Positions 18,462 to 56,258 of a stretch of DNA of 64,000 nt are shown piece by piece. Made by a program: the position numbers and the translations under genes. The notes under the pieces were generated by a model. That model saw nothing but the letters and a program-made list of their open reading frames with translations, was not told where the DNA came from and searched no databases. The DNA lies in the IMG/VR virus record IMGVR_UViG_3300033156_001279, positions 13,069 to 77,068 of that record; one strand, written 5' to 3'. The stretch comes from a virus. Taxonomy: Duplodnaviria; Heunggongvirae; Uroviricota; Caudoviricetes. How positions within the stretch are numbered: the stretch's first letter is position 1; the number at the start of each line of letters is the position of its first letter.

Positions 18462-18478
18462 AACTCTTTAAATCTCAA

Positions 18479-19531
18479 TTATAAATCCAACCATTTTTGA
18501 TTCTCAGGTCTTATCATCCATTCCACACATTTTCTTAATGACTCTTCTAAATTTAATTTTGGTATCCAGCCTAATTTTTTTAACTTCTCACCTGATAATG
18601 CATATCTAAAATCATGACCGGGTCTTAAAACATGATAATCTTTAAATTCTATCTCATTTTCCTTTAATTTTCTGCCCTGTATAATTTGGGAAATCTTATT
18701 GGCCATCCAAAGAGCATCTTTTTCCTCTCCAACTATGTTATAACTTTCTTCCCTTTTTCCATTAAATAACAAGAAGAAGAGACCATCATAGATATTTTTA
18801 GTGAATAACCAATGTCTTTGAGAGATTTGATTGGGTTTGCCATGAATTATAACTTTTTCCTTTCTTAAAATTTTCCTTACAACCATTGGAACAAACTTCT
18901 CAGGATGCTGTCTTTCTCCAAATATATTCATTGAATGAACCATACAAATCGGAATCTTAAACGAATGAGCGAAAGCATATTCCATAGACCATTGTCCCGC
19001 CTTTGCTGCCGAATACGGATTTGACGGATAAAACTTATCGGTTTCCGGATGATATTCTCCTTTCTCAGCTGGTCCATAAACTTCATCAGTGTTAAAACCA
19101 ATATATTTTTTGATATTAGGTCTTGAATTTTTTATCCATTCTAATAAATTAGTGGTTCCAACCACATTACTTTGAGCAAAAGGTAAAGCGTTTTTGAGAC
19201 TTCTTTGCACATCACTTTCAGCCGCTAAATGGATAATATAATCTACTTCGCCAATCAACTTATCAATAATTGAAGAAATAGGGCTTCTTAAGTCATGATA
19301 AACAAATTTAACTCTATCCTTTTCGAGTTTCCAGTTATCAATTTCGGTTATTCTATTTAAATTCCCAGCATAGGAAAGCCTATCTAAAATCTTAATATCC
19401 CAATTGGTTTCTTTTAAGAATCCTGAAACAATGTGCGAACCCACAAAACCAGTGCCTCCAGTTATAAGCACTTTTTTTCGATTATTTTTAAGATTTTCTA
19501 ACTCTTCTTCCATAATAATATTGTTTATCAC
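18479..19531 (-). CDS. NDP-sugar 4,6-dehydratase / epimerase (extended SDR)
   Basis: Rossmann VLITGGTGFVGSHIV, NTDEVYGP, and YxxxK as NPYSAAKAG. Pattern resembles RmlB-type dehydratases. Confidence 0.55.
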   Translation of the reverse strand: MINNIIMEEELENLKNNRKKVLITGGTGFVGSHIVSGFLKETNWDIKILDRLSYAGNLNRITEIDNWKLEKDRVKFVYHDLRSPISSIIDKLIGEVDYIIHLAAESDVQRSLKNALPFAQSNVVGTTNLLEWIKNSRPNIKKYIGFNTDEVYGPAEKGEYHPETDKFYPSNPYSAAKAGQWSMEYAFAHSFKIPICMVHSMNIFGERQHPEKFVPMVVRKILRKEKVIIHGKPNQISQRHWLFTKNIYDGLFFLLFNGKREESYNIVGEEKDALWMANKISQIIQGRKLKENEIEFKDYHVLRPGHDFRYALSGEKLKKLGWIPKLNLEESLRKCVEWMIRPENQKWLDL

Positions 19532-20162
19532 TGTTCGCTATGTTTTTCCAACCTGTTATTTTCTTTAAAGTCTTACTTTCAAAATGATGCACATAACTAT
19601 CTAAAACTTCTTTAGGAGAATATCCAGAACAAGTAAGACGCTTAATATAGTCTATATCCCCTCGAGCTAGTTTAAATTTCTCATCAAAATAACCAATAAT
19701 CCTAAATGCTTTTCTTTTAATAGCAAAACAAAATAGAGGAATTCCTTTGTGTTCTCGTTCAGTATTTTTTGGAAAATTCTTAGGAAGCTTCTTTCTAGTA
19801 AAACTTGGGTAAACTAATAACGAATTAGATTTTTTAAGTTCTTTAATTAAATTATCAATGGCTAGAGGTGCAAAAATAATATCATTATTTATAACTACTA
19901 TTAGTTCTGAATCAGAAGCTTTAAGTCCTTGGTTTATTGAAGTATAAACCCAATGATTCACCTTATTTTTTATTTGTAACAGCTCAATTTCATTGGAGTA
20001 ACAGAAATTATAGACCCATTCCAGTGTTTGATCAACAGAAGCATTATCTACTTGTATCAAACGAAATTCTAATTTAGTATTGGTTTTTAGACTTCTAAGA
20101 CATTGTTTTGTAAAATCAATCTCATCTTTCGTTAAAATAACTATATCTATCTTCTCAATCAT
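19488..20162 (-). CDS. glycosyltransferase family 2
   Basis: IVILTKDEIDFTKQCLRSLKTN...VDNASVDQT, the GT2 N-terminal signature. Confidence 0.5.
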   Translation of the reverse strand: MIEKIDIVILTKDEIDFTKQCLRSLKTNTKLEFRLIQVDNASVDQTLEWVYNFCYSNEIELLQIKNKVNHWVYTSINQGLKASDSELIVVINNDIIFAPLAIDNLIKELKKSNSLLVYPSFTRKKLPKNFPKNTEREHKGIPLFCFAIKRKAFRIIGYFDEKFKLARGDIDYIKRLTCSGYSPKEVLDSYVHHFESKTLKKITGWKNIANSDKQYYYGRRVRKS

Positions 20163-21306
20163 TGAATTTTTCGAATTTATTTTTCAAATTCCTATAAGTC
20201 TCATCATCAGGAATTATTAATCTTCCACCTTTATAATACATCTTTACCGAATCCAATATTCTTTCTGGGGTAATAATTTCAAAACATCTTGGAACTTCCC
20301 CCTTATCCGTCTTAATTAGATTTTTACACTTTCCTTTTATCGAACCTCCTAACCAACAACCATCCCATTTACAACATTCCATACAACCATTGGAATAGAT
20401 ATATTGAATATGCGGATAGATTTGCCAAAGGACTCCTTCTTTTCCCCCAGCTACAACTACTGCTGGCTGTTCAAATGCAGCAGACATTTCGAATTGAAAT
20501 GAGATAGGTCCAATAGTTCCTTCAGCCCAATATCCAAGCCTGATTAATTCTCTGAGATTGGTCTTGCCAACTAAATTTAAGACTCCTTTTAAGGGAGGAT
20601 GAATATGAGCTTGATGCCCTATCTGAACTAACTTAACTCGACCATCAAAATAATTATTAAACAAATCAACAAACTCCTGCCAGCGATGATATTGTTTTAA
20701 TTCATTATCTTGTTTTCTGCCAGCATTTATAAGCCAAAATGGTCCATCCCATCCAAATTCACAATGAACTTGATTATACCAACTTTTTTCTTGCTCTGAT
20801 ATCCATAATTCTGGTTTTATACCAGTCTTTTTGATTGGAATTTCAAGTTTCTTTTCCAGTTCATGCCTGAAAGCATCTGAAAAATGCAGACCATTCCAAC
20901 CAGATTGGTGAATTTCTTCATATCCAATATTGAAAATCTCCACTCCTTCATCATTTTCATTTAAAGGACTCAATCTTGGATTATTCTCCCAAATTTCGGG
21001 AGCGGGAGATCTGATATCAATTTGATAATTTGGATAACTTTCCTTTAAATCACCAACAGCTCTGGTAAATACTAAAATATCGCCGGGCGATTGGCCTTGT
21101 CTAAGGATTACTTTTCTTTTCTTTTTAACTATTTCGGGATGAGCTTCTGCCCATAACTCCCATGGTGTTTTTGCATCAATATAATTTATTGGAAACATAT
21201 TTAAAAAGGAAAGGAGAGAATCAAGAGGTTTCTCAAGATTCTCTCCTATTTTTGGAGAAGATTCAATTATCAAAAAGTTCATCGAGGCTGATAGCAGAAG
21301 TTCCAA
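20155..21306 (-). CDS. GT9-family heptosyltransferase-like glycosyltransferase
   Basis: ILRQGQSPGDILVFTRAVGDLKESYPN and a C-terminal ...LVGKTNLRELIRLGYWAEGTIGPISFQ block resemble ADP-heptose:LPS heptosyltransferases. Confidence 0.45.
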   Translation of the reverse strand: MELLLSASMNFLIIESSPKIGENLEKPLDSLLSFLNMFPINYIDAKTPWELWAEAHPEIVKKKRKVILRQGQSPGDILVFTRAVGDLKESYPNYQIDIRSPAPEIWENNPRLSPLNENDEGVEIFNIGYEEIHQSGWNGLHFSDAFRHELEKKLEIPIKKTGIKPELWISEQEKSWYNQVHCEFGWDGPFWLINAGRKQDNELKQYHRWQEFVDLFNNYFDGRVKLVQIGHQAHIHPPLKGVLNLVGKTNLRELIRLGYWAEGTIGPISFQFEMSAAFEQPAVVVAGGKEGVLWQIYPHIQYIYSNGCMECCKWDGCWLGGSIKGKCKNLIKTDKGEVPRCFEIITPERILDSVKMYYKGGRLIIPDDETYRNLKNKFEKFND

Positions 21307-22045
21307 ATCTAGAAATTACAATTCCTGCTGCCTTGTTAGCAAGCTCCATCATTTTTCTAGGATTCCTTATTCCATTTAAAAGACAAAAAATCAGAATCGA
21401 CATTACGGTATCACCTGCACCTGTAACATCAATGACTTCTTTGACATCTGCTGGAACATTTTCAACAAACTTTCCATTCTCATAATAATCAATTCCTTTC
21501 TCAGCCCGAGTAATAAATGCTTGAGGAAAATCAGGATTTTTAGCTTCAGCAAATTCAAACTGATTAATCTTAAGAATTTCAGTTCCCTTAAAAACAGAGA
21601 GGTCTTTCTTTTTGGAGTCAACTATAGTTGCCTTACCGCCTTTTATGAATCCTTTATCATAATCTACAAAAGCAATAACTTCGAAATCACAAGGATTGGG
21701 TAATAGGATTCCTTCTAAATCTTCTGGTCGATAAACCGAAGGCTCATCTATCCTCAGTAATTGTTGACGTTGAGCTACTATTCTTGTCTTTCTCAGAGAT
21801 TGACACCTTTTGGGACTAATGATTTCGAAATCAAAATCTCTTGCAAATTCATCATCAATGATAGTAAATACAACTGGAATTATTCCCAACCCCATCAGAT
21901 TAATTGCTACATTAAGAGCTCCACCAGCTCTAATCTCTGTCCGCTCAACATCTATAATTGGAACAGGAGCTTCAGGAGAAATTCTTTCAACTTTTCCAAA
22001 ACGATATTCATCAATGAAACTATCACCGACGATAGCAACCTTCAT
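21263..22045 (-). CDS. PfkB-family sugar kinase (HldE kinase-domain-like, heptose-7-phosphate kinase type)
   Basis: DVTGAGDTVMS (the PfkB DTxGAGD motif). N-terminal MKVAIVGDSFIDEY...GGALNVA. Confidence 0.6.
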   Translation of the reverse strand: MKVAIVGDSFIDEYRFGKVERISPEAPVPIIDVERTEIRAGGALNVAINLMGLGIIPVVFTIIDDEFARDFDFEIISPKRCQSLRKTRIVAQRQQLLRIDEPSVYRPEDLEGILLPNPCDFEVIAFVDYDKGFIKGGKATIVDSKKKDLSVFKGTEILKINQFEFAEAKNPDFPQAFITRAEKGIDYYENGKFVENVPADVKEVIDVTGAGDTVMSILIFCLLNGIRNPRKMMELANKAAGIVISRFGTSAISLDELFDN

Positions 22046-22046
22046 C

Positions 22047-23030
22047 TCAGCCTCCTTTCTGAAATTGGAAGCTTCTCCTTTTCAAAGAGCTATTCTTAAT
22101 TTGTCGGATTAAATTAGTTGTTGAAAAACCTTTCAAAAGAGGAATTATTACTACTTTACCCCCCGACTTTCTTACAAAATCAGCACCAACTACTGTTTTC
22201 AAAGTATAATCACCTCCCTTAACTAGTATATCAGGTTTGATATTCTCAATCAAATTCAAGGGACTATCTTCATCAAAAATCTCAACTCTATCTACAAAAC
22301 TAATCGCTTCTAAAAGTTCTTTCCGCAATTTTTCCCCAATGATTGGCTTTCTTTTCCACCTCTTTGCTGAATCATCAGAATTAATTCCGACAATTAATTT
22401 ATCTCCAAGTTTCCTAGCTTTTCTCAGGAGATGCAAATGACCCGAATGTAATAAATCAAATACTCCATTGGTAAATACAACACTCTTTTTTCTGAATAAT
22501 GCGCTATAAATATCTTCCCTGATTCCAGATTCTGTTTCAGGATAACCAGACTTAATAAGTTTGAAACCTCTAACTTGAAAGAATAAGTCTAAACTCCGCT
22601 CTGTAAAATAATGTAAATGCTCTCCAGTCTGATATTTGAGATGTTTCCAACCATCCAAATTCTTTCCGAATGGTAAAATGGGAACGGTAACAAAAACATA
22701 ATCAGTCATTTGGAATAAGCTATCAAGTACTAAAAAATCAGGAATATGCTCCAAGACATCACAAAGAAAAATCAGATCATAATGACTATGTCTGATTCCC
22801 GTATACTGAATTGGAAAATCTCCAATATCATAAGTATCAACCACTGTACCTTTAGGCTTAAAATCTTTTAGCAGATTCAAACCCGCTCCATAATCAAGAA
22901 CTGTTTTGGGTTTTATTTCTTCAACAAAATTCCAACGCAGTTCATTAATTACTTTTGCCGTTTCCATATTCAATTTTTTCATATATTCCCAATATTGTTT
23001 TCCATATGGGAAGGAATCTCTTTTAGACAT
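22047..23030 (-). CDS. bifunctional methyltransferase-like / cytidylyltransferase-like nucleotidyltransferase (HldE adenylyltransferase-domain-like)
   Basis: C-terminal VVFTNGVFDLLHSGHLHLLRKARKLGDKLIVGINSDDS carries the HxGH motif of the cytidylyltransferase family (RfaE domain II / TagD). N-terminal SAM-MTase-like VLDYGAGLNLL...LIFLCDVLEHI. The start is placed at the ATG at 23028-23030, which is preceded by an AAAGGAGG Shine-Dalgarno. The ORF track's TTG-extended ORF runs to 23081. Confidence 0.6.
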   Translation of the reverse strand: MSKRDSFPYGKQYWEYMKKLNMETAKVINELRWNFVEEIKPKTVLDYGAGLNLLKDFKPKGTVVDTYDIGDFPIQYTGIRHSHYDLIFLCDVLEHIPDFLVLDSLFQMTDYVFVTVPILPFGKNLDGWKHLKYQTGEHLHYFTERSLDLFFQVRGFKLIKSGYPETESGIREDIYSALFRKKSVVFTNGVFDLLHSGHLHLLRKARKLGDKLIVGINSDDSAKRWKRKPIIGEKLRKELLEAISFVDRVEIFDEDSPLNLIENIKPDILVKGGDYTLKTVVGADFVRKSGGKVVIIPLLKGFSTTNLIRQIKNSSLKRRSFQFQKGG

Positions 23031-23058
23031 GTTGACCTCCTTTCTTGTTAGGAAACTT

Positions 23059-23157
23059 GGAGAGACGTAATTTCCCAACAACCTTAAGGTCTCTCCAAAC
23101 CATTAGATATCATAAACTCCTTTTAGTGAAGTCTCCTTCTAATGGTTAACTTAAGGA
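23059..23157 (-). terminator. two adjacent hairpins downstream of the major capsid gene (candidate terminator/attenuator)
   Basis: Inverted repeats GGAGAGAC...GTCTCTCC (23059-23096) and AACCATTAGA...TCTAATGGTT (23098-23157), between the MCP stop and the glycan-island start. Confidence 0.3.
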
Positions 23158-23176: not shown

Positions 23177-24121
23177 TTAGAGCGACCAATCGGGATTACA
23201 ACCGTAAGCATACTGCCACATTCCAAAGCCAACATTTCCCCTGAAATCAACTCCGAAATAGAGTTTCTTTTTCAAGAAACTATCAGTATTATCCTTAGTC
23301 AGACTATCAAAGGTAATATCTCGTCTGATTTGAAGGATAATAGGTTTAACAATTCCAGTGGTATCTATAACAGCCCAGAAATTAGTATCTACATATGGAG
23401 TAACATAAAGATCCAGAGCTCCTTTCAGAACGTTCGTTGCAAGTTTGGTTCCTTCAACCTCTGTTGGGTAGTATTGGCTATTCAGAATTTCTCGAGCAGT
23501 AAATTGCTGACTTGGATTAACTATCAAGAGATTAGGTCTAACTTCAAGTGGATTTCCCTTATCATCCACCCATTGCATCATTTCTTCAATTACAGTTTGA
23601 AGATTATCAGCAGTCAATTCCAGGTTATCTCCATTTCGTTGAGTTCCAGATTCACCTTCTTCATGAGAATCTGAAAAGAAAGCCTGACCATCATAACAGG
23701 AAATATCTTTGCCTTCAAGAATTGTTCCATCTTCTCCTGTGGTGTTATCCCCTTGGTTTAATAAGGTATATACCATTTTGCCCCAGAACCTTCCAGCTTT
23801 ATTTGCCAAATCTCTTACTCTGATATTAATCTGGCCATACTGTTCATCTTCCAATGCATCTCTATCCACAGAAATAGAACTTTCCCAAGATCGATTCCTA
23901 ATGGAGAAATGATGTTCTAAAAGACCCTGTGGAACTCTTTCGTCTACCCATTCATGTAAGTCAGGTACCGCACCCAACCAAGGATAGGTTTCTTCACTCT
24001 TGGTTGAGTTTATTCTAGTAGCAATTCTTTCCCATTCAGCTTCATGCTTTCTAAACTCTTTCATGAATGTCTTTCTCATTCCAGCCTCTAATAGTTTTGG
24101 AATATCAGATTTTACTAACAT
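23177..24121 (-). CDS. major capsid protein
   Basis: 314 aa, immediately downstream of the protease/scaffold and a small head protein. Size and composition fit HK97-fold or Mu gpT-like capsid proteins. Confidence 0.5.
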   Translation of the reverse strand: MLVKSDIPKLLEAGMRKTFMKEFRKHEAEWERIATRINSTKSEETYPWLGAVPDLHEWVDERVPQGLLEHHFSIRNRSWESSISVDRDALEDEQYGQINIRVRDLANKAGRFWGKMVYTLLNQGDNTTGEDGTILEGKDISCYDGQAFFSDSHEEGESGTQRNGDNLELTADNLQTVIEEMMQWVDDKGNPLEVRPNLLIVNPSQQFTAREILNSQYYPTEVEGTKLATNVLKGALDLYVTPYVDTNFWAVIDTTGIVKPIILQIRRDITFDSLTKDNTDSFLKKKLYFGVDFRGNVGFGMWQYAYGCNPDWSL

Positions 24122-27121: not shown

Positions 27122-30100
27122 TTATTTGGGCTTTGGAAGTTCGCTTTTCTTTAAAACCCAAAACTTGCTGGCATCTTCCCTTTCTAAAATCCACAGACCT
27201 TTTAATTTTTTGCCTTTAAATTCAAATTTTTTAAAAGAATCAGAATCTTCATAAACGACTGCTTTCCCTTTATCTATTATCTTAATATATGAACTCGTTG
27301 CCTTAGTTGGGTTCGCTTCTTCTATTCCAGGTGGTAATTTTGCCAATTCCTTTTCTGACATTTTTGCTCTTTCATTTGCAGGCGGAAGATACTGAGAGAC
27401 TTCCATCCATTCTTTATATTTACAAGGTTTCCATATCGCTGTAATCTCTTTATTTTTTAAAGGATTTTGACTAAGAACAAAATGCATCAAGCCTTCCCTT
27501 TCAGGAAAATTGAATCTCAAATCCCAATGTTCTTTTGAGATTCCCGCTCTAATAACCCTTTGTCCGCGCCACCAATGCCACTGCAAAACAAAGGAAACTG
27601 TTTTTGCCTTTTCAATCTGTAAAAGTTCAACCATAATCAACTTCATATCGTTGGGTCTTTTTCTCAACCAAGTTATAATATCCTTCAGCCATTCTTTCTT
27701 AAGTGGATGAAGCTCTTTGAACTCTTGTAGTGCTTTCTCAACCCGTTTAACTTTTTCCGGGTAAGGAGTTCGAAGCCAAAAAGTTAAAATCTGTTGGGAC
27801 AAAACATATCGATAAGCAGCCCTTGCCCAACTTGCACCTGGGTTCAATTTTTTTTCAACAAGTTCTTTTCCAAGTTTTTCAACTAACTTATCTCTAACTT
27901 CTAACCTTTTCTTTTTATCTTCAAATTTCCAATACTGAAATTCTTTGGAAATTTTCTTTTTTATCTTTTCTGGTAGAGCAGAAATATTCTTTGGAGGAAT
28001 CCATTTTTTCTCAACAGCCACATCTGAAATAACATAAGGTGTTTCGTCTAATGGCTTAACAAGGAACCATGATGCTTCTTCTCTAAATTTTGTTTCTCTT
28101 GCTGGAGGTATAACTTCCTGCTTCTCTATCTTTCCTCGAAATTCAGCAGGTCTTAATTGCCTGAAAAACCACCTGCCCTTGAGTTTGCCACCAGAAAAGA
28201 AGTATTCATGGAAATAAGACTTTTGAGTTCCGCATTCGCAAAAACCCCTATCAATGATATGAAAAACTCCAGGGTATTCTTTCGTTGCCCCCACTTCTCC
28301 TTTTGGTGTTATACCTTCGACATTCAGCCACTCCACTGGCTCCCTTGATTTCCTCATCGCTGCTATTTCAGCATATTTTTCTTTGAATCCAGGCTTAATC
28401 CCAGGCCTTAATTTGGGAATACCTTTCTTCCAATCTATTTTCCAGATATCTTGGGCATCATATTTTTTCGCTTCAGCTATTGAAAGAACTGGCTCTTTGA
28501 TTTTTCCCTTGATTTGGTCAGCGATAGTCCAACCAATAAGAAATTCATTATACTTAAACCTCAAATCGGAATGGCAACTTTTACCCCTATAGTGATGCTG
28601 AACTACATACTTTTTCTTTCCTTCTGGCTTGGGATATTCCATATAAGGGTCAGCTAGTTTTTCAACCTTAAGCTTGGTCTTCATATATTTTTCTGCTCGC
28701 TTCCAGCATTCATACCAAGAGCCAGTCTTTTTCTTTGGTTTTATATCAATTCCAATACTATGCAAAACATCAACTATCTTAGCAAAATATCTCAAAATAT
28801 CTTCCATTGTCCAATCACCCCATTTTTTTCCTGCTTTTAATCTTGGAAAGCCAGCATTGCCCAAATATCTCAGATCTGCTATCAATTCTCTTTTTCTTTT
28901 CTTTGGATTTTTCAAATCTTCATCCATTCCTTCACTTCTAAATTGTTCCAAATGAAGTTTTTCTATTTCAGATAGATAAATAATCTTTCCTTCTTTCGTA
29001 ATCTCCTTCTCCTGTAAACAATAATTCTTCTTTGCTCGCTCAATCGTTTCTCTAACCGTATCTGCTTTCCTATCTACCTTACGCATTACTCTCGGAGCCC
29101 AAACCGAAATTCTCCAAGTATCATCTGTCAAATCATGTTCAGCATTCAGAGTTTCACCCTCAATCTCCAAGACATCTCCTTTATTAGCTTTTAAAGAGGT
29201 AGAGAAAGTTCTACCAGAACGGTGATAGAAAACATTGCCAAGTTTTTCTGTCTTCATTTTGTATTTTCCAGGTTCTAAACCGAAATAATAGTTATATACT
29301 TCTTTTACTTTGGTCTCTTTGATTTCAAGAACCTTGCCATAAACTGCTGTTGAATTATGAAATTTTACCATCCCACTCCGTATACCTTTGAGATTAAATT
29401 TGAAATCTCTTGTCTTACAAACATTGCCTTCTGAACCTGGTAGTCGTCTTAAAAATTCTGTATGTTTTCTTAGTTCCCTTCTGTTTTTTGAAAGAAGATA
29501 AGGGGCAAAATTCAATTTCATTTTTGTATCTGGAATTTTCCATGTTCTTTGCTTAAAAGGCAAAGACTCAAGTAACTTTAATCTTTTTTCAAAAGACTCA
29601 TTATGGATATCAATTTTAAAATAAGGCATATCATAAACATTAGCAACCACATGAGAATCATCAGGCATTCCTTTTTGATGCATATAACCAGCAATTACTT
29701 CTCTTGGTTTATGGTCATTGTCTTCCCACCATTCTAATTCGGCCATCAATACACAATCTTCTTTAGTTAATCTTTTCACTTCTTCAATCAAAGTAGGCAA
29801 TCTGTTAGTTATGATTTCACCATCTTCCGAAAAGATTTTTATTTCATTTCCTTTTTTATGCAACTCACAATTAAATCCATCATACTTCTTAGTTGAATAA
29901 AAAGGATATTTCCCTATTCCCTCCATTACTTCAGTAAATAAAACAATCGTTTGTCTTTTTTCTGGATAATACCCTCTTGTGGGTTTTAACGGCAAGAAAA
30001 ATCTGAACAATTTAATTTTATCTTCTCTTGCTGAAGTCTCAGCATCCTTGACCGCTGAAGCAACTCGGGGTTTTTCTCTTAGTTCTTTTTCAATTTCAGA

Positions 30101-31828
30101 AAGTTTCAGCATTCTATCTTTGCTTCTTAACATCACCAGATTATAAAGAGGAATAGCATTTGTGAAAGGAGTTGAAAATTTATCATAAACAAAATGCAAT
30201 CTTCTTCTAATCCACCAAGGAAGACTTCTAGCTATTCTAAATTCAATTATTCTTCTCATATCAAAACTCAACCATTCAGGTAAAAGAATATCCAAATCTC
30301 CTCTTGTTGCACCTCGGTTCACTATTCCTCCCGTAAGATAAACAAGCGGTCTTTGAATGGTAAAATTTTTAAAATAAGGCAATACCTCTTTCAAAACTAA
30401 GGTCTTTCCCATTCTCTTACCAGAAGTATAAATCGGCGCTGAATTCTCACTTAAATTGATAACCGTGTTATCTGTTGCTATGATGGCAGGAATTTTTGTT
30501 AACTCTTTAATTTTAGTTAACAAAACATCATCTCCATAACTCAGCGATTCTTTACCTAAATGAGTAATTATAATCTTTTTAACATTATCAACTGTATACC
30601 AATTCTTTAACTGATTGGCGATGCTACTATGACCATATGGTTCACCTGCTTTCCCTTTTCTTCTCGCCAAAGTTCTGGTAAGAGAAGAACCATCAATAAT
30701 TGCTAAATCCAATTTCTTAACATACTTTTCCTTATCTCCAGAATGCCAACCTAGGATATCTGTTGCTTGAAGAACTTTCTTATCACCCATTTGAATTATG
30801 AAAACATGCATTTTTGCCCGAATAGAATGAAGAACGGGAATTGGGGTTATTTTGAAGGGACCTAGATTAAAAGTCTTATAAGATTCATATTTTGCTCTGG
30901 TATCAATGTTGAAATCTTTATAAAGATTTGGAATTTCTTTTGCAGTTTCTTTGGAAACTATGACAGACATATCTTTCAAACCTAAAAGATGATCTGGGTG
31001 GGAGTGGCTAACCAAACAATAGTCTGGTTTAATTTCACTTAGGTTACCCTGATTTATCTCCCCGTAATCCACTAAAAGTCTTTTGCCTTTATACTCATAG
31101 AGAATCGCAGTATGGAACCTATGTCCAGGACCTTCTTCTTCAATTAAACCTTTTGTCCCGTAAAATGAAACTTTGTAACCTTCTTTGCTAAATCTTTCTT
31201 CAAATTTTTTTGATTCTTTATCTAAATTATCATCCATTACCTCATGTTTGAGTTTTCTTTTTAATATCTCATTCTTAATTAAAATGTGATAGTTGATACA
31301 TTCTTCTTTCGAAGCTGCTGATTGTTGCCATATTTTATGCAGTTTCTTATGCATATCCAAAAGTTCTTCATCGCTGAATTTAGCTGGATCACCAAAGTTC
31401 ATACTTTTGAAAGTTACACCTTCTAACCAAACCTGAGCACCTTTTGGTCTGATGATTTCTTTAGGAGGATCAAATTTCGAGATGAGTTCGATTGGGTAAT
31501 AGTACAAAGTCTTCTTCCCTTTCCACCACTTTCTGTATTCAGAATCTGAAATCTTATGAAATTTTCTCAGTTTCTTAAATTCTTTTAAATCAATCTTTCT
31601 GCCTTCTTTTAGTTCGATGATTCCTAAAGCTTTGTCTTCCTCAATCAAATACACTGGAATTCCAATATATTTCTTAAATAATCTTGAACTGACTATTGCT
31701 TTTTTCTTTCTTTGCCAAATCAAAGTACCATGGGGTTTCACCAAAATTTTTCCAGGCAACATAATTGTTCTTCCAGGCTGTATCAATTCAGGAATGTCTG
31801 ATGGAACTAACATTTTTGCAGAAATCAA
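27122..31828 (-). CDS. LigD-like multidomain DNA-end processing enzyme: MBL-fold + possible Pol-beta-type NTase + ATP-dependent ligase + two LigD 3'-phosphoesterase domains
   Basis: HSHPDH (HxHxDH) at aa 275-280. GG-x9-DLD at ~aa 500-513. Ligase motifs KYDG (648-651), DGE (669-671), EGNVCK (800-805), KVLEIKETK (~832-840). LigD PE signatures VVQHHY..HSDLRF..EGITPKGEVG..IIDRG..GGKLKGRWFF (aa ~1073-1225) and VLQWHW..HWDLRF..GKKLKGLWIL (~1413-1552). Confidence 0.6.
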   Translation of the reverse strand: MISAKMLVPSDIPELIQPGRTIMLPGKILVKPHGTLIWQRKKKAIVSSRLFKKYIGIPVYLIEEDKALGIIELKEGRKIDLKEFKKLRKFHKISDSEYRKWWKGKKTLYYYPIELISKFDPPKEIIRPKGAQVWLEGVTFKSMNFGDPAKFSDEELLDMHKKLHKIWQQSAASKEECINYHILIKNEILKRKLKHEVMDDNLDKESKKFEERFSKEGYKVSFYGTKGLIEEEGPGHRFHTAILYEYKGKRLLVDYGEINQGNLSEIKPDYCLVSHSHPDHLLGLKDMSVIVSKETAKEIPNLYKDFNIDTRAKYESYKTFNLGPFKITPIPVLHSIRAKMHVFIIQMGDKKVLQATDILGWHSGDKEKYVKKLDLAIIDGSSLTRTLARRKGKAGEPYGHSSIANQLKNWYTVDNVKKIIITHLGKESLSYGDDVLLTKIKELTKIPAIIATDNTVINLSENSAPIYTSGKRMGKTLVLKEVLPYFKNFTIQRPLVYLTGGIVNRGATRGDLDILLPEWLSFDMRRIIEFRIARSLPWWIRRRLHFVYDKFSTPFTNAIPLYNLVMLRSKDRMLKLSEIEKELREKPRVASAVKDAETSAREDKIKLFRFFLPLKPTRGYYPEKRQTIVLFTEVMEGIGKYPFYSTKKYDGFNCELHKKGNEIKIFSEDGEIITNRLPTLIEEVKRLTKEDCVLMAELEWWEDNDHKPREVIAGYMHQKGMPDDSHVVANVYDMPYFKIDIHNESFEKRLKLLESLPFKQRTWKIPDTKMKLNFAPYLLSKNRRELRKHTEFLRRLPGSEGNVCKTRDFKFNLKGIRSGMVKFHNSTAVYGKVLEIKETKVKEVYNYYFGLEPGKYKMKTEKLGNVFYHRSGRTFSTSLKANKGDVLEIEGETLNAEHDLTDDTWRISVWAPRVMRKVDRKADTVRETIERAKKNYCLQEKEITKEGKIIYLSEIEKLHLEQFRSEGMDEDLKNPKKRKRELIADLRYLGNAGFPRLKAGKKWGDWTMEDILRYFAKIVDVLHSIGIDIKPKKKTGSWYECWKRAEKYMKTKLKVEKLADPYMEYPKPEGKKKYVVQHHYRGKSCHSDLRFKYNEFLIGWTIADQIKGKIKEPVLSIAEAKKYDAQDIWKIDWKKGIPKLRPGIKPGFKEKYAEIAAMRKSREPVEWLNVEGITPKGEVGATKEYPGVFHIIDRGFCECGTQKSYFHEYFFSGGKLKGRWFFRQLRPAEFRGKIEKQEVIPPARETKFREEASWFLVKPLDETPYVISDVAVEKKWIPPKNISALPEKIKKKISKEFQYWKFEDKKKRLEVRDKLVEKLGKELVEKKLNPGASWARAAYRYVLSQQILTFWLRTPYPEKVKRVEKALQEFKELHPLKKEWLKDIITWLRKRPNDMKLIMVELLQIEKAKTVSFVLQWHWWRGQRVIRAGISKEHWDLRFNFPEREGLMHFVLSQNPLKNKEITAIWKPCKYKEWMEVSQYLPPANERAKMSEKELAKLPPGIEEANPTKATSSYIKIIDKGKAVVYEDSDSFKKFEFKGKKLKGLWILEREDASKFWVLKKSELPKPK

Positions 31829-31942: not shown

Positions 31943-33415
31943 TTAGTTCCGCATCTGGGACAAATTTTTTTTCTTTTGGCCATCAGCATATTTCTGACCC
32001 AACTTAAAACATTTAATTTCCAAGTCGGGACCAGGTTTTAAATTTAATATACTATCTTTCAAAGACTGAGGAGTCTTTGGAGCATTTATTTTAAGCTCAT
32101 CACTTCTTCTTCGCTTTCCTTCTTCAAAAGATTTTAACAAATTCTTATTCCTTTTCTCTGTCTCTTCCTCTTTCTTATGAATCCACTTGAGTTTTAAATT
32201 CCTTGCAGTCTCATCAATTACTTCGTCCACAAAACCATCAGGCAATCGTTTAGAGTCTGCTATCTTAGAAAAGACCGTTTCCAAGAATTGAGCAGTCTGT
32301 CCAGTTATCTTCTCAAATTCAATTCTTGGATATGCTTGACTGCCAAAGTTCCAATCTATAAGGGGAGCCACAGCATAAGTATTCAAGGTAGATTCCATCT
32401 GATTCATAATAGATTGAATAGACAAGGTGGCATATTGAGAGCTTTGGGTTCCTTTCCCATATGGATAAGCATATTTAATCTGATCTAAGACCTGCACCAA
32501 AGCTGACTTACTCATTTCACTATTATGATGTTCAATTAAAGGAAGAGGATCAAAACCTTTTTCACCACCTCTCTGAATTTCAAGTTCAATTCCTGGAGGC
32601 AAAGTCACTCTTGAATTAACTCCAAGAGTATCCACCACTTCTTCTGCTCTCTCTCTTTCTTGAGGAGTGGTAGTCTGTCCAATTTTTAATATTTTCAAAC
32701 CCAATGTGTCCAACTCGGCCTTTTTATGAGTTAAATAATATAACTTATGTTTTTTGTCATAATGATACCAGGCCGTCTTTAATATAGATTCGCCATAAAG
32801 CCAATGTTTTTCTTTTTGAAAGGTAAATAAAAGACACTTTTCAGGAGGAAAGTCTATAGAGACGGTTTCTCCCCCAAATGTTGCATCCTGATGTGCTCCA
32901 GCAAAACCGCCATGCTTATCAGGTTTTAAGGTAATAGTTTGAGCATCCCTCGGAGCTAATTTTTTCCAACCCACTTTACCTTTGTACTTACCATCGGGAA
33001 TTATTCTGGCTACTTTCTCATAAAGTCTAAATCCCTCAAAAATTGCTCTGGTCATATCAGCCACAATAAAAGGAAGTGGGGTAGTCATCCCACCTTGACC
33101 TGGAGGATTCATAAAAACCATTTCTATAAAGTCTCTTTCTCCCTTATCTCCTTCTGCTGGAAGAATATGAATAGGAGTTGAAATTATAGGTAAAGTCAGA
33201 AGTCTAACTATAGCCTGTATTTCACCATCATTGCTCTGCATCTGAATATAATCTTCGGGAGTCAATTCATCTGGATTTTCTTCTGTTTCATACGAGCTTA
33301 AGACTCCTTCACGAGCCAAACCGAACTCTTTCATAAACTCGCTGATAGTCAAAACCTTCCTTTCTTTCTTACTCCTTTTTTTTCTCTTAAAAAAATTAGG
33401 AATTTTTATATTCAC
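31943..33415 (-). CDS. portal protein (putative)
   Basis: 490 aa, upstream (in transcription order) of the protease/scaffold and MCP. Acidic, with size and position typical of portals. No diagnostic motif was verified. Confidence 0.4.
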   Translation of the reverse strand: MNIKIPNFFKRKKRSKKERKVLTISEFMKEFGLAREGVLSSYETEENPDELTPEDYIQMQSNDGEIQAIVRLLTLPIISTPIHILPAEGDKGERDFIEMVFMNPPGQGGMTTPLPFIVADMTRAIFEGFRLYEKVARIIPDGKYKGKVGWKKLAPRDAQTITLKPDKHGGFAGAHQDATFGGETVSIDFPPEKCLLFTFQKEKHWLYGESILKTAWYHYDKKHKLYYLTHKKAELDTLGLKILKIGQTTTPQERERAEEVVDTLGVNSRVTLPPGIELEIQRGGEKGFDPLPLIEHHNSEMSKSALVQVLDQIKYAYPYGKGTQSSQYATLSIQSIMNQMESTLNTYAVAPLIDWNFGSQAYPRIEFEKITGQTAQFLETVFSKIADSKRLPDGFVDEVIDETARNLKLKWIHKKEEETEKRNKNLLKSFEEGKRRRSDELKINAPKTPQSLKDSILNLKPGPDLEIKCFKLGQKYADGQKKKNLSQMRN

Positions 33416-39927: not shown

Positions 39928-40391
39928 GTGGAATATCTTTGCGGGAAGCCGGTAAGATGGTTTATGGTAAGTGATAAAAAAAGTGTTTAATTTTAGCCGG
40001 TTTGAAGCTCAAAAAATTAAAATTACTTTTTATCAAAACCCATTTACGATTTTATTTGGCTTTCTACAAAGGTATTCTGACTTGCCACCTTTATTCTACC
40101 ATATTTAATTCAAAAAGTCAAAAATATACTTCTTGAACCCAGGTTCAAAAACTATTTTAAAAAGTGAACTTATGTTTCAAAAAATGAAATTAACTATCAG
40201 AAGATATATTAAGAATAGAGAAATTAACTTTAATTGGAAAGGACAACTCTATATTTTAGCTTTCAGAGAGCTAAGGAAACAGGATAGAGGATTTTTCTTT
40301 AGCATTTACAAAATAGAGGGTTTAAAGTATAAAAGAGTTTTTAAGTTCTAAGTTCATTTTAGCAATAATAAAAATAAAGGTCAAGTAAATT

Positions 40392-46385: not shown

Positions 46386-46405
46386 TTTTGAACCTGGGTT
46401 CAAAA
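46386..46405. repeat. 20-bp perfect palindrome TTTTGAACC-TGG-GGTTCAAAA
   Basis: Seen directly. Other copies lie at 2766-2779 (one mismatch), 40133-40148, 50258-50271, 52395-52410 and 54746-54759. Confidence 0.8.
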
Positions 46406-48308: not shown

Positions 48309-48347
48309 TGTCAAGAGTTGACAAGGGTGTTCTAAAAATGATATAAT
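48309..48347 (+). promoter_or_regulatory. sigma70-type promoter P4 (TTGACA-aggg-N-TATAAT-gg) with overlapping palindrome TGTCAA-gag-TTGACA
   Basis: -35 at 48318-48323, 18-nt spacer, -10 TATAAT at 48342-48347, ATG at 48354. The palindrome 48309-48323 covers the -35 and is a candidate operator. Confidence 0.45.
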
Positions 48348-50256: not shown

Positions 50257-50916
50257 ATGAACCCAGGTTCAAATGCGAATAAGAAAAAGATAATCCTTGA
50301 CTTATGTGGGGGAACAGGAGCTTGGAGCAGACCCTACAAAGAAGCAGGATATGATGTGAGGAATATAACCTTACCTGATTATGATGTTAGAACTTATAAG
50401 CCACCTAAAAACGTTTATGGGATATTGGCTGCTCCGCCCTGTGTGCAATTCAGTTTTGCTAAAACTACTGGTAAACCTAGAAACTTGAGAAAAGGAATGG
50501 AAATAGTTATTGCTTGTTTAAAAATAATTTGGGAATGTCAATATGATTTAAAGAGTCCTTATGCAAAAGAAACTACACTAAAGTTTTGGGCATTAGAAAA
50601 CCCTAGTGGATTACTCAAAAGATTTCTTGGAAAGCCAGTCTTTGAATTCTGCCCTTATGATTTTGGTGATGAATATCAAAAACATACTTCTTTGTGGGGT
50701 TATTTCAATATTCCGAAAAAAAAACCAACAAAATTGTCTAAAAGATTAAAAGAATTATCTAAAACTCATAGTCAACCTTTAGCAAAATATATGAAATTTG
50801 ACAGATTAAAAACGAGAGAGATACATCCAGAATATTATGGAAAATTAACACGAGCAGAAAGAAGGGCTATAACTCCATCTGGTTTTGCTGAGGCATTTTT
50901 TCAGGCTAATAAATAA
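50257..50916 (+). CDS. minimal C5-cytosine methyltransferase-like protein (motifs I, IV, VI only)
   Basis: ILDLCGGTGAWS (motif I-like), AAPPCVQFSFAKTTG (PC motif IV), FWALENPSG (ENV-like motif VI). 219 aa with no recognisable target-recognition domain. The ATG is immediately followed by the TGAACCCAGGTTCA palindrome. Confidence 0.45.
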   Translation: MNPGSNANKKKIILDLCGGTGAWSRPYKEAGYDVRNITLPDYDVRTYKPPKNVYGILAAPPCVQFSFAKTTGKPRNLRKGMEIVIACLKIIWECQYDLKSPYAKETTLKFWALENPSGLLKRFLGKPVFEFCPYDFGDEYQKHTSLWGYFNIPKKKPTKLSKRLKELSKTHSQPLAKYMKFDRLKTREIHPEYYGKLTRAERRAITPSGFAEAFFQANK

Positions 50917-52395
50917 TCACCAACCTTTCGGAATCTTTTTTCCTTCTTCAAACATAGAACCTCCGCCGACGCTAACTTCCCTGTCTTTTCCTTCCGAAGC
51001 ACCCATTTTATTAAAACCCTGTAGAGCCAAAGCTACTGACCAAAAATCATCCGAATGCTGAGTCCCAGTTTCCATACTCACTAAATCATTAGTAACAGAA
51101 CATATGGAAGTCAGCATTTCTTCATCATTAAGAAGTTCCAATTGTCGGTTCAAAACTACCTTTCCGAAATCAGTAGCCATCTGAACTCTTTTCTTGGAAG
51201 TAAAAACCACAGGGACAAATTGAGGAGACAAGAGTCCTAAATCACTGGCTCCTTCCAATTCTCCTCTGGTACTGTCATAAAAGACATAATCAATTCCAAA
51301 AACCCTTATAGCTTCTTTGACATATTCCAACTGAGTTGGTTTGAGAGGGTCATATGTTTCGCCAGAATAATAGCCCCAATTTCTCACACTCTTTCTGTGA
51401 ATGTGTATGGCTTTTCCTTTCCTGATTTCAAAAACATTCAAGACGCTTGGATGTTTTTTCTTTCCCAAATCCCAACCAGCTACAACCAAGTTGTCTGTTT
51501 TAAAACCTTCGATTATCGGGATATTTCTCAAACTCTCATTGACTATCTCCTTTCTCAACTTTTCTTTCTTAAAATAACTATCAGTTGAATAATACGGATT
51601 ACATTGCACTTCTGCTGAAAAAGCCTTTTCCCCCATAACTGGGATTTTCGCTTTTAATTGTTCCAAGGTATAAAACTCGGGCCAAGTCGGAACTTCATTT
51701 CCTTCTTTATCTCTGGTAATTCCTGGGTAAAAACGAACATGAAATTCTTTTTGGATTTCAGGATCAAAATAAATATCAGCACGGGAGATGGTGGACCCAG
51801 CGACATGAATTTCACCTCCAGGTTTGAGTGCTTCCAAAATAACACTCCTAAATATATCTGAGATTTTTAGAGTTAGAGTTGGATGAATCGGATTAGAAGG
51901 GTCTGAAAATAAATCATCGCATAAAATTATGTTATCCTTTGCTCCCCTTGTAAATGAGATTATTCCAGAAGGTCTGATCCTTATCACGTGTTTTCCATCC
52001 CAAGTATAAGCAGCAACATTCTCCGCTAAAGGTTTCAAATTTTTAAGTTCTTCGAAATAAGGATTTTTATCTATCAAACTTTTAATTTGCTGAATATGCC
52101 AACCAGCTAATCTATCATTAAATGAATAATATCTGATGCTCAAATCTTGCTTAAAGCCTTGGAACATTATTTTAAAGAGAACATAAGAGTAGAAACTTGT
52201 ACTTTTAAAATGGCTTCTGGCAGCGACCCTCATTGTTCTATCATATTTCTGAAGATAATCACAACATTCTTTGATATAGGACCCGCCAGTGAAATTGGTA
52301 AAACTTTCAGCAAATATTTTTGTTGTAAAAAAATAAAAGCTCTTTTGAGCTTCACTCAATATCTTAACTTTGGTTTTTAAATCTATATTTTTCAT
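50917..52395 (-). CDS. terL: terminase large subunit
   Basis: N-terminal ATPase region (RVAARSHFKSTS Walker A-like, ILCDDLF Walker B-like). C-terminal RNaseH-like nuclease (VAGWDLGKK..., ...METGTQHSDDFWSVALAL). The start is taken at the ATG at 52393-52395. The ORF track extends to a TTG at 52410, which lies inside the palindrome. Confidence 0.6.
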   Translation of the reverse strand: MKNIDLKTKVKILSEAQKSFYFFTTKIFAESFTNFTGGSYIKECCDYLQKYDRTMRVAARSHFKSTSFYSYVLFKIMFQGFKQDLSIRYYSFNDRLAGWHIQQIKSLIDKNPYFEELKNLKPLAENVAAYTWDGKHVIRIRPSGIISFTRGAKDNIILCDDLFSDPSNPIHPTLTLKISDIFRSVILEALKPGGEIHVAGSTISRADIYFDPEIQKEFHVRFYPGITRDKEGNEVPTWPEFYTLEQLKAKIPVMGEKAFSAEVQCNPYYSTDSYFKKEKLRKEIVNESLRNIPIIEGFKTDNLVVAGWDLGKKKHPSVLNVFEIRKGKAIHIHRKSVRNWGYYSGETYDPLKPTQLEYVKEAIRVFGIDYVFYDSTRGELEGASDLGLLSPQFVPVVFTSKKRVQMATDFGKVVLNRQLELLNDEEMLTSICSVTNDLVSMETGTQHSDDFWSVALALQGFNKMGASEGKDREVSVGGGSMFEEGKKIPKGW

Positions 52396-52410
52396 TGAAC
52401 CTGGGTTCAA

Positions 52411-52533
52411 TTATCTCCTGTTTCGTCCTTTACCAGTTCTTCGAGTGGGGCTACATCCGCCACGCCCTCGATTTGCTCTTATCCCTCTTCCACTTCCGTC
52501 TCTACGAGGTATTCCTCTTTTTGTTTTAGTCAT
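52411..52533 (-). CDS. candidate 40-aa Arg/Gly-rich micro-ORF in a locally GC-rich spacer between terS and terL
   Basis: Minus-strand ATG at 52531-52533. Translates MTKTKRGIPRRDGSGRGIRANRGRGGCSPTRRTGKGRNRR, stop at 52411-52413. Its GC content is visibly above the surroundings. Confidence 0.25.
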   Translation of the reverse strand: MTKTKRGIPRRDGSGRGIRANRGRGGCSPTRRTGKGRNRR

Positions 52534-54455: not shown

Positions 54456-54748
54456 AAACGCTAAATGACATTTTAAAAGAGTATTATAGAAGATTTACTC
54501 ACGATTGGCCTCCCGAATGGTATACAAAGGAAGAGGCTAAAAATCATCCGATAGAAGCGGGAAAATTTCTTACCAAAGAAATAACCGAATTACTAGAAGA
54601 ATTAGTTGGAAAAGAACGAAAACTTCCTAAAAATGCAAAAATGCTTTTTAGCAATGAAGAATTGAAAAAAGAAAAATTAAGAAATTATGGTTCTAATTTA
54701 AGACGTCAATACCTTAAAACCCAAATTAAAGAAATATTAAAGAAATGA
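54452..54748 (+). CDS. hypothetical protein (98 aa)
   Basis: ATG at 54452 coupled to the upstream stop. The TGA stop is part of the 54746-54759 palindrome. Confidence 0.35.
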   Translation: MKTLNDILKEYYRRFTHDWPPEWYTKEEAKNHPIEAGKFLTKEITELLEELVGKERKLPKNAKMLFSNEELKKEKLRNYGSNLRRQYLKTQIKEILKK

Positions 54749-54841
54749 ACCCAGGTTCAAATTATGTTTTATAAAAATTTATCTAAAAAAGGTTTAAATA
54801 AATTAGGTTCTCATTATAAATAACTGAATCCGATATAAAAT

Positions 54842-55325: not shown

Positions 55326-56258
55326 ATGAAGAAACCAAAGCAAAAATCTAAAAATAATCCTCTACTAAAACTAGAGAATTGGATAAGAAAGACATACAAA
55401 GCAACTCCAAAAGATAAGTTATATCTTAAAGTTGCTAATCTTATAAAAAGTTCGAATTCTTCGGAAAGATATTTCTCGCTTTCTGAACACGAATATATTA
55501 TCGAGAATAGGGATTGGGACTATTATTTTATTGTGCCCGAAAGTGCTTTCAAAGATAAAGAGGAGATGAAAGTTACAAAAATCAAATGTAAAAACCTAAT
55601 CCGAGAAGTGATAGAATTTCCTTCTAAGTTGGTATTTTCTTTAATGGACCAATCATATTCACCATTGGGAACCGATGGTTTTTGGAAGTATAGTGAGAAA
55701 TGGGATGATGAAACTTTTGAATTTAAGCCCAGAATAGCAATTAATAAGAGTGGCAAATTAATCGGAGGTGATGGCAAACCCCTATTTGGATTTCATTTTA
55801 GTTCACCTAGAGGAAGAATTTACAAAAACATACTTTTTACTGATTTAACAAAAGCTAGTCTGAAAAGAGCAAAAATTCTATTACTTAAACAGAATTTAAT
55901 TCCTCTAAAAGAATTCAAGAAACAAAAATTTCTATTAGTAGTTTCACCAGAAATAGAATTTAAGGCAAAAGAAATAGAACATGAACTTATGAAAGAAAAA
56001 CATCCAGACGATCTTTTAGTAACCCCTTATCTGAAAAAACTTAATTGGGCAATAATCTTAGAATCTCCTGCCAAGCCCTTGATTTTTCAACTCAGGTCAG
56101 AACCAGATTTCTGTGTAAATGTTAAAAGACTTTTTGCAGAGGAGTTTGAAAAGAAGACAGTAATAGATTCTAATATGAGATGCAATGCGGGAATTGGAGA
56201 CTGGAAGAAAATAGTTGGTTCATTCAAGAAGGAAGTTGAAAATGAAATATTTAATTAA
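55326..56258 (+). CDS. hypothetical protein (310 aa)
   Basis: ORF. Confidence 0.4.
   Translation: MKKPKQKSKNNPLLKLENWIRKTYKATPKDKLYLKVANLIKSSNSSERYFSLSEHEYIIENRDWDYYFIVPESAFKDKEEMKVTKIKCKNLIREVIEFPSKLVFSLMDQSYSPLGTDGFWKYSEKWDDETFEFKPRIAINKSGKLIGGDGKPLFGFHFSSPRGRIYKNILFTDLTKASLKRAKILLLKQNLIPLKEFKKQKFLLVVSPEIEFKAKEIEHELMKEKHPDDLLVTPYLKKLNWAIILESPAKPLIFQLRSEPDFCVNVKRLFAEEFEKKTVIDSNMRCNAGIGDWKKIVGSFKKEVENEIFN

Follow-up and report, generated by a model that had tools for sequence, protein, structure and literature searches.

A phage gene following two amino-methyltransferase genes encodes a candidate ultra-compact DNA cytosine-5 methyltransferase of the phrog_757 family

The 64,000-nt stretch of phage DNA analyzed here (the window) carries, directly after two DNA methyltransferase (MTase) genes, an open reading frame (ORF) for a protein of only 219 aa, which raises the question of whether so short a chain can be a complete cytosine-5 (C5) MTase. 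A preliminary description of the locus had called the product a minimal C5-cytosine-MTase-like protein and offered three readings, namely a trimmed anti-restriction enzyme resembling Dcm, a noncatalytic DNA-binding derivative, and one half of a split enzyme. We found another reading to be the most convincing one: the protein is probably an "orphan" DNA cytosine-5 methyltransferase, SAM-dependent and complete in a single chain that stands alone, and belongs to an ultra-compact phage family, as judged from sequence comparisons and a structural model. The observations on which this reading is built are the fold, the motif conservation, the size of the family, the lack of a conserved partner, and the gene arrangement.

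The 219-aa ORF, with its ATG start, was confirmed in the ORF list of the window (Table 1), and gene calling on the JGI metagenome contig Ga0366835_1024766 gave the same gene. Because of this identical call and because its closest homologs match the protein with an E value of 2.7e-127 and 87% identity, we consider the ORF to be a real gene. Its minimal size and its place right after two beta-class amino-MTases, both pointed out in the preliminary description, were borne out. The two upstream genes encode full-length N6_N4_Mtase proteins, both with motif IV on the N-terminal side and FxGxG (DPFLGSGTT/DPFIGSGTT) on the C-terminal side, which is the beta-class order. The first of them, the DPPY enzyme, spans positions 1-221 of the 221 in the PF01555 profile and has a CcrM-like NCBIfam match below the cutoff. 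The start of the second, the SPPY enzyme, is the ATG at 49180 in the JGI contig call, and a TTG at 49147 (giving 367 aa) is also possible. Downstream, a convergent gene for the terminase large subunit (phrog_38, E 3.3e-21) adjoins the stop codon of the 219-aa gene. The consensus sigma-70 promoter upstream of the three MTase genes is the only perfect site of its kind between 47800 and 51300, and 6 nt separate its end from the ATG of the first gene. It probably drives a three-MTase operon in which the 219-aa gene is the third member, and this promoter and the three consecutive genes suggest co-expression as an anti-restriction module.

Table 1. Coordinates of the features at the methyltransferase locus, given as positions in the window
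Feature	Coordinates	Strand	Remarks
Consensus sigma-70 promoter, TTGACA-18-TATAAT with upstream TG	48318..48347	+	12/12 match
Beta-class DNA amino-methyltransferase, DPPY, 273 aa	48354..49175	+	PF01555 E 5.8e-47; phrog_67 E 3.3e-69
Beta-class DNA amino-methyltransferase, SPPY, 356 aa	49180..50250	+	PF01555 E 4.8e-51, profile 1-221 of 221
Gene for the compact protein with predicted C5-MTase fold (phrog_757 family)	50257..50916	+	Stop codon included
14-nt near-palindrome TGAACCCAGGTTCA over the start codon of the 219-aa gene	50258..50271	+	Repeated motif copy
Motif I, residues 14-22 LDLCGGTGA, AdoMet-binding glycine loop	50296..50322	+	Aligned to HhaI FIDLFAGLGG
Motif IV, residues 60-68 PPCVQFSFA, predicted catalytic Cys62	50434..50460	+	C62 aligned to HhaI C81
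Motif VI, residues 110-116 FWALENP, Glu114	50584..50604	+	Aligned to HhaI E119, DNMT3A ENV
Motif VIII-like strand, residues 136-153 FGDEYQKHTSLWGYFNIP	50662..50715	+	K142-x-T144 replaces canonical R-x-R
Variable basic segment in the place of the target-recognition domain (TRD), about residues 154-196	50716..50844	+	pLDDT 46-59, low confidence
Conserved C-terminal block, residues 197-218 LTRAERRAITPSGFAEAFFQAN	50845..50910	+	Probable compressed motif IX/X equivalent

A PHROGs search assigned the protein over its full length (residues 5-219) to phrog_757, annotated as "DNA methyltransferase" (E 1e-30). At 90% identity, its homologs fall into at least 7,965 clusters, nearly all of them 190-236 aa long, and at 50% identity into 2,114 (E ≤ 1e-3). 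A length of about 200 aa is the norm across these clusters, which speaks against the suggestion that the enzyme had been trimmed. A precomputed Pfam domain was attached to none of the at least 7,965 clusters listed. At least 590 confirmed stretches in IMG/VR carry homologs, as do 34 records of cultured phages and archaeal viruses, and the family thus ranges over phages of bacteria and of archaea. Cultured carriers include the mycobacteriophages Send513 (gp92) and Papyrus (gp93), Haloferax tailed virus 1 (HFTV1; gp60), Pelagibacter phage HTVC106P, Tetrasphaera phage TJE1, and Vibrio and Bacteroides phages. Most of the relatives in cultured phages (about 200-230 aa) share 25-40% identity with the 219-aa protein over 95-98% of the length; the match to HFTV1 gp60, which is 218 aa long by its coordinates, spans 62%. 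The latter protein has independently been assigned to the C5-cytosine MTases from motif analysis by Liu et al. (PMC8651126). All residues of the family signature, ILDLCGGTG...PPC.FS...WALENP...K.T.LWG.F..P...R[AS]ITP.GFA.AF..AN, are present in the 219-aa protein.

Within phrog_757, the protein sits in a metagenomic sub-clade whose members are up to 87% identical to it. The nearest relatives of this sub-clade in genome collections are found in metagenome-assembled genomes (MAGs) of Ca. Saccharibacteria, but the MTase gene alone is common to these and other MAG contigs, which therefore do not point to a host. Our literature searches found no biochemical or methylome characterization of any phrog_757 member. 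The 219-aa protein is therefore a member of an annotated but uncharacterized family, labeled "DNA methyltransferase" in phrog_757 and GenBank and "C5-cytosine MTase" in HFTV1.

The relationship to C5-MTases was not evident from searches with single sequences. The search against PF00145, which had been proposed as a check in the preliminary description, gave no match for the 219-aa query at E ≤ 1, and the sole Pfam match of the query or of a profile of its close homologs was a marginal one to Methyltransf_23 (E 0.069). The query matched nothing in NCBIfam, and HMMER searches of the PDB sequences with the query alone and as a profile retrieved no relative. Weak PF00145 matches (E ≤ 1) appeared in 33 of 70 diverse relatives, the best with E 2.6e-7; ten members scanned singly scored 12.7-18.9 bits or gave no match, all below the gathering threshold of 22 bits. 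We then aligned the alignment of these 70 diverse members with one of canonical enzymes, composed of M.HhaI (its sequence verified against 10mh_A) and seven canonical phage C5-MTases, using hhalign. The two matched with a probability of 96.3% and an E value of 1.8e-9 over query residues 11-156, covering motifs I to VIII and pairing motif I with motif I, C62 with C81 of HhaI, and E114 with E119. The family alignment reached 61.3% against M.HhaI and 55.7% against DNMT3A (sequence verified), and a low-diversity alignment was uninformative against M.HhaI (11%).

A structural comparison agreed with the profile alignment: in a Foldseek search with the model of the 219-aa protein, the best 50 matches were all catalytic domains of DNMT3A, DNMT3B, or DNMT3C. 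The model has a class I Rossmann-like MTase fold that is most like those of solved DNA C5-MTases. By the refutation criterion put forward in the preliminary description, the empty PF00145 search of the query would have counted against the protein; the kinship was recovered solely by profile-profile and structural comparison. The original designation as C5-cytosine-MTase-like held up on this evidence, and we place the protein in the C5-MTase fold on the strength of the alignments and the predicted structure. Structural relatives also occur within phage proteins of 1,100-1,400 aa, one of them annotated as "Helicase/UvrB, N-terminal." Some high-GC family members are extended at the N terminus by about 100 aa; one such extension has helix-turn-helix (HTH) matches, and the others have a ribbon-helix-helix (RHH)-like "VFxVRLxxxER" segment in common. 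Such extensions and the relatives within large phage proteins are consistent with action on DNA. Dnmt2 has the DNA-MTase fold and methylates tRNA, and we consider it very unlikely that the 219-aa protein acts in its manner, as a cytosine-5 methyltransferase of RNA such as tRNA.

The three motifs named in the preliminary description, LDLCGGTGA, PPCVQFSFA, and ALENP, are present in the ORF at residues 14-22, 60-68, and 112-116. Each is strongly conserved in the alignment of 70 members. In motif I, L16 is found in all 70, G21 in 68, and D15 in 58; in motif IV, P60 is invariant, and C62 and F65 are kept in 69 and 68 members, respectively; in motif VI, E114 is present in 69 and N115 in all 70. We take this near-invariance of the predicted catalytic residues as a mark of purifying selection.

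Motif VIII has a different character. Its R-x-R arginines (R163 and R165) are invariant across the canonical set, whereas this hallmark of C5-MTases is missing from the family, in which K142 and T144 are each present in 69 of the 70 members and G148 in all of them. The hhalign comparison pairs K142 with R790 of DNMT3A, T144 with R792, and WG with WG. In canonical enzymes, the motif VIII arginines touch the flipped cytosine and a phosphate. By these alignments, K-x-T is a genuine departure from the canonical C5-MTases, and it weighs against methyltransferase activity; it is a conjecture that R203 or R75 may stand in for a lost arginine.

The altered motif VIII and the unusual C terminus would also suit an enzyme that retains the fold and the covalent Cys chemistry but transfers a nonmethyl group to C5, works in another DNA context (single-stranded or replicating DNA), or modifies another pyrimidine. 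A precedent is CmoX, a phage DNA cytosine C5-carboxymethyltransferase (PDB 8yf3) defined by SPPC and by an Arg at the position of HhaI N304; enzymes of this type co-occur with CmoA (PMC12783734). We regard such altered chemistry as unlikely for the 219-aa protein. Its conserved C-terminal residue is an Asn, not the Arg of CmoX, and its motif I has the normal GGTG. Accessory genes conserved in the 80 related loci were not found, and neither were genes for TET/JBP, a ligase, or other hypermodification enzymes among the window ORFs scanned, or for CmoA among the methyltransferase-like ORFs of the window. The methyltransferase-like ORFs at 14.9-15.9 and 22-23 kb are part of a sugar/heptose cluster.

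Between motif VIII and the C-terminal block, where canonical enzymes have their TRD, the family has a variable region of 18-98 aa (median, 46) whose sequence cannot be aligned. In the 219-aa protein, it amounts to about 45 residues. A variable region between motifs VIII and IX is thus present, but it falls far short of its length in canonical enzymes, and the confidence of its prediction is low; it resembles no solved or Pfam family in the Pfam and PDB sequence searches. It is basic, with 17 K/R against 5 D/E at residues 151-203, as is the whole protein (40 K/R against 20 D/E). In position and behavior, the segment is what would be expected of a target-recognition region in miniature. To our knowledge, no characterized prokaryotic C5-MTase has a recognition module as small as 18-50 residues.

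The segment is followed by a C-terminal block with the consensus R203-[AS]-I-T-P-x-G-F-A-x-A-F-x-x-A-N218, in which R203 is conserved in 65, F210 in all, and N218 in 68 of the 70 members. The earlier statement that C-terminal motifs are lacking is therefore incorrect, residues 197-218 being strongly conserved. Compared by eye, the block resembles a compressed motif IX/pre-motif X segment that ends at the motif X Asn; when the last 70 residues of the chain were aligned by hhalign with the C-terminal half of the canonical enzymes (motif IX region), the E value was 0.71, which is not significant. The short chain can be accounted for by four features, namely a collapsed connector between motifs II and III (a 19-residue gap relative to HhaI in hhalign), the small variable segment, the C-terminal block, and the altered motif VIII.

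The small size could alternatively mean that the protein is one subunit of a split C5-MTase of the M.AquI/M.EcoHK31I type, with a second polypeptide bringing the TRD and motifs IX-X; natural two-polypeptide C5-MTases do exist (PMC3404938). This idea, carried over from the preliminary description, fared poorly, and we consider it highly improbable. The C-terminal block is conserved and lies in cis, in the same polypeptide. When the window ORFs were compared with the canonical C-terminal half carrying the TRD and motifs IX-X, none matched (best E, 0.16), and the gene downstream is that of the convergent terminase. Around the homologs, no neighbor was conserved in more than 11 of 80 viral loci, and a conserved partner family was likewise absent from 41 genomic loci. 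By inspection of the sequences, the commonest neighbors looked like terminase, a ParB-fused N6/N4 MTase, DNA polymerase, DnaB, portal, and exonucleases. The relatives typically lie between the replication and packaging modules, near the TerL, portal, DnaB, PolA, and ParB-MTase genes. These common neighbors in the 80 viral loci put the gene where the replication and packaging modules meet, with no partner dedicated to it.

The start codon of the 219-aa gene lies, as the preliminary description had stated, within a palindrome containing CCWGG (here CCAGG). This near-palindrome, TGAACCCAGGTTCA, has 6-bp inverted arms around a 2-nt center. Exact copies occur five times in the window, at 40134, 46389, 50258, 52396, and 54746, against 0.14 expected; of three further copies with one mismatch, one lies on a gene boundary (2766), and a large ORF contains the other two. 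The flanks of the copies are not conserved, and the asymmetric center CCCAGG always follows the local direction of transcription. The sites at gene boundaries are the ATG of the 219-aa gene, a position just before the terminase ATG, the stop codon at 54746, and the junction between two tail genes at 2766. None of the 89 other loci examined contains the motif. A role as an MTase-specific site was considered and rejected, since copies stand at gene boundaries unrelated to the MTase and none is found in those other loci. The motif therefore seems to serve regulation or processing in this phage lineage and not to be a feature of the methyltransferase gene. CCWGG itself is not unusually frequent in the window (47 observed against 60 ± 8 expected), and with the palindrome repeated genome-wide, the proposed Dcm-like CCWGG specificity of the 219-aa protein is unsupported.

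A start codon that overlaps a repeated, regulatory-looking palindrome, a strongly basic composition, and the loss of the canonical motif VIII arginines would each be compatible with a DNA-binding derivative that has lost all or nearly all catalytic activity and serves as a regulator, a decoy, or an occluder of restriction sites. We think it quite unlikely that the protein is of this sort. Hardly any variation is seen at Cys62, at Glu114 and Asn115, or at the glycines of motif I when representatives of some 2,000 clusters (50% identity) are compared, which is hard to explain without catalysis and counts against the noncatalytic derivative considered at the outset, and the palindrome is also found at five other, unrelated gene boundaries.

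We therefore return to a stand-alone methyltransferase. That the 219-aa protein is an active DNA m5C methyltransferase seems somewhat better than an even guess from its sequence, and methylation of the phage DNA by it would most likely serve to evade host restriction. We infer that it is catalytically active, that it acts on DNA with SAM as cofactor and recognizes a short sequence, and that it serves against restriction. By homology, motif I and the acid of D43-V44 would hold AdoMet, Cys62 of PPC would attack C6 of a flipped-out cytosine while Glu114 of ENP protonates N3, and the methyl group would then be moved to C5 of the cytosine. DNA contact and any sequence preference would come from the K/R-rich variable segment in the TRD position; the catalytic loop probably assists in DNA contact, and oligomerization may do so too, as in the DNMT3 enzymes. 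SAM is a more probable cofactor than carboxy-SAM, because the conserved residue near the C-terminal end is an Asn and not the Arg of CmoX and because no methyltransferase-like ORF of the window resembles CmoA. Probably co-transcribed with the two beta-class amino-MTase genes from a strong early promoter, the gene would help to mark replicating phage DNA with as many as three types of methylation ahead of packaging, which would shield that DNA from host restriction enzymes.

By itself, this window is an ordinary one, that of a phage with a three-gene anti-restriction methylation operon, and the interest lies in the family more than in this locus. The family is an under-studied variant, set apart by its length of about 200 aa, its mini-TRD, and the K-x-T of motif VIII. 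A bolder and tentative proposal, which we hold to be possible though on the doubtful side, is that the family, for which the 219-aa protein is typical, forms a distinct class of cytosine-5 DNA-modifying enzymes of about 200 aa with neither a folded TRD nor the motif VIII arginines. Such enzymes may be either the smallest active m5C MTases, with a DNMT3-like architecture, a short or relaxed specificity, and possibly a dependence on oligomers, or enzymes of altered C5 chemistry. If active, the family members would be smaller than any known DNA cytosine-5 methyltransferase, M.HhaI having 327 aa and the catalytic domain of DNMT3 about 285 aa. They would then reveal the minimal protein needed for base flipping and target choice, and they could provide compact effectors for targeted DNA methylation.

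Surveys of m5C based on PF00145 would probably overlook the family, because the query and probably many of its relatives score below the PF00145 threshold; an example is a methylome study that pairs m5C motifs with genes found by PF00145 (PMC11954522). An overlooked family of this kind could be part of the reason for the orphan m5C motifs in data from phages and microbiomes. Viromics papers often list phage "DNMT3A" genes from KEGG assignments (PMC11309003), and these genes may belong to the phrog_757 family.

Among known systems, the split enzymes M.AquI and M.EcoHK31I resemble the 219-aa protein in having a small polypeptide with motifs I-VIII, but their TRD and motifs IX(-X) come from a second subunit that they require (PMC3404938), whereas the 219-aa protein carries its C-terminal block in cis and no partner was found. 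It differs from CmoX in having APPC instead of SPPC, in having Asn218 in place of the Arg (the equivalence of Asn218 to HhaI N304 being inferred), and in its surroundings, as CmoX has a CmoA gene nearby and no methyltransferase-like ORF of the window gave a CmoA-like match.

The canonical type II C5-MTases differ more broadly. M.HhaI is about 110 residues longer, and its motif II-III connector is not collapsed. M.HhaI, M.HaeIII, and Dcm have a folded small domain, in place of which the 219-aa protein has a variable region of about 45 aa. Canonical enzymes have R-x-R in motif VIII, continue with a helix beyond the conserved Asn at which the 219-aa chain stops, and, unlike it, match PF00145. The catalytic domains of DNMT3A, DNMT3B, and DNMT3C are the closest structural matches of the predicted model. 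The DNMT3 enzymes have a short TRD loop, and their function depends on dimer and tetramer interfaces. They keep R790/R792 where the 219-aa protein has K142/T144, and the sequence likeness to DNMT3A in hhalign is no stronger than that to M.HhaI; we see no evidence of a specific common ancestry of the family with DNMT3. It is with the other phrog_757 members that the 219-aa protein agrees throughout: they match it over the full length and share the same set of motifs, and nothing essential differs between them.

The near-palindrome (T)TGAACCCAGGTTCA(A), 14 to 16 nt in length, was found in several copies in the window versus 0.14 expected, and none was found in the 89 other fetched loci. All six copies at gene boundaries follow the direction of local transcription, and the sequence flanking the copies shows no conservation. 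The near-palindrome is probably a lineage-specific operator, a promoter element, or an RNA-processing hairpin. One copy has immediately upstream of it a 40-aa ORF consisting almost entirely of Arg and Gly, with the Mor-like gene on one side and the terminase gene on the other. This ORF may encode a protein, or its GC-rich sequence may instead act as a structured RNA or DNA element.

The first of the three methyltransferase (MTase) genes is preceded by a perfect sigma-70 promoter that ends 6 nt short of its ATG (48354), and its mRNA may therefore be leaderless or nearly so. Two divergent promoters on the opposite strand are directed at the replication-initiator gene. These promoters suggest that the host uses a sigma-70-type transcription system.

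Features of the window and of fetched family members (window coordinates unless a locus is named)
Feature	Location	Strand	Match or source
Sigma-70 promoter, 12/12, extended -10 TG	48318-48347	+
Two divergent promoters, 10/12, back-to-back	48314-48285; 48151-48123	-
Near-palindrome, exact copies	40134-40147; 46389-46402; 50258-50271; 52396-52409; 54746-54759
Near-palindrome, one-mismatch copies	2766-2779; 27833-27846; 30308-30321
982-aa ORF	9578-12523	-
Two GT2 glycosyltransferases	within 12576-23081	-
UDP-glucose/GDP-mannose dehydrogenase	within 12576-23081	-
RGP-family transferase	within 12576-23081	-
Nucleotide-sugar epimerase	within 12576-23081	-	phrog_540, E 1.5e-68
Heptosyltransferase-like, weak match	within 12576-23081	-
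Class-I methyltransferase fused to ParB_N domain	14935-15879	-
HldE-like heptose kinase	21266-22045	-
Heptose-1-P adenylyltransferase fused to methyltransferase	22050-23081	-
ORF with capsid-type match, structural block	23180-24121	-	NCBIfam protease/MCP-fusion-like, E 3.7e-11
Arg/Gly ORF, 40 aa (MTKTKRGIPRRDGSGRGIRANRGRGGCSPTRRTGKGRNRR)	52411-52533	-
ORF with capsid-type match, + strand block	55326-56255	+	phrog_371 major head protein, E 7.5e-13
Degenerate-loop paralogues	L072:5001-5633; L084:5001-5648		both on IMG/VR contig 3300025087_000091
Module fusions	L113:5239-6513		family proteins P0172, P0186, P0187, P0194, P0198, P0200, P0211, P0247; structural relatives BFVD A0A6J5SE15, A0A6J5NPY6

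Elsewhere in the window, about 10.5 kb on the minus strand (12576-23081) is occupied by sugar-metabolism genes; a capsid-like gene (23180-24121) precedes this cluster, and the 982-aa ORF and tail genes follow it. This cluster may constitute an ADP-heptose/glycan pathway that glycosylates the virion or the host surface. The 982-aa ORF, for which no PHROG match was found, lies in the sole GC-rich stretch of the window (44% versus approximately 33%). Capsid-type matches fall in two separate ORFs on opposite strands, and the terminase (50917-52410) and portal (31946-33415) genes are separated by approximately 17 kb of mainly plus-strand early genes.

One subfamily of the compact C5-MTase-like family has a degenerate AdoMet loop, LHLCxSxIGSDS rather than LDLCGGTGAWS, together with IANPPC and RRSICS, and retains PPC, ENP, and the altered motif VIII, K-x-T. 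Column counts in the alignment of 70 diverse relatives suggest that it makes up about 8 of them; two paralogues occur approximately 8 kb apart in a single phage. The subfamily may reflect changed cofactor use or a regulatory paralogue. The compact module was also found fused to additional parts. Some high-GC members carry about 100 aa of RHH/HTH-like sequence at the N-terminus, a protein on a Planctomycetia contig is extended at its N-terminus by about 250 aa, and phage proteins of 1,100 to 1,400 aa contain the module internally, one of them annotated as "Helicase/UvrB, N-terminal."

The nearest genome-collection relatives of the 219-aa window protein (loci L091, L094, L095, L100, and L107; 50 to 67% identity) lie on contigs binned to Candidatus Saccharibacteria and Parcubacteria MAGs, which weakly suggests CPR bacteria as hosts of the phage lineage. 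Apart from the MTase gene, these contigs share no gene with the window. PAPS-reductase-like proteins are frequently associated with DNA modification pathways, and in Haloferax tailed virus 1 (L003, MG550112.1, 32884-34474), the family member gp60 is located two genes downstream of the PAPS-reductase-like gp58, in the MCM/PCNA replication module.
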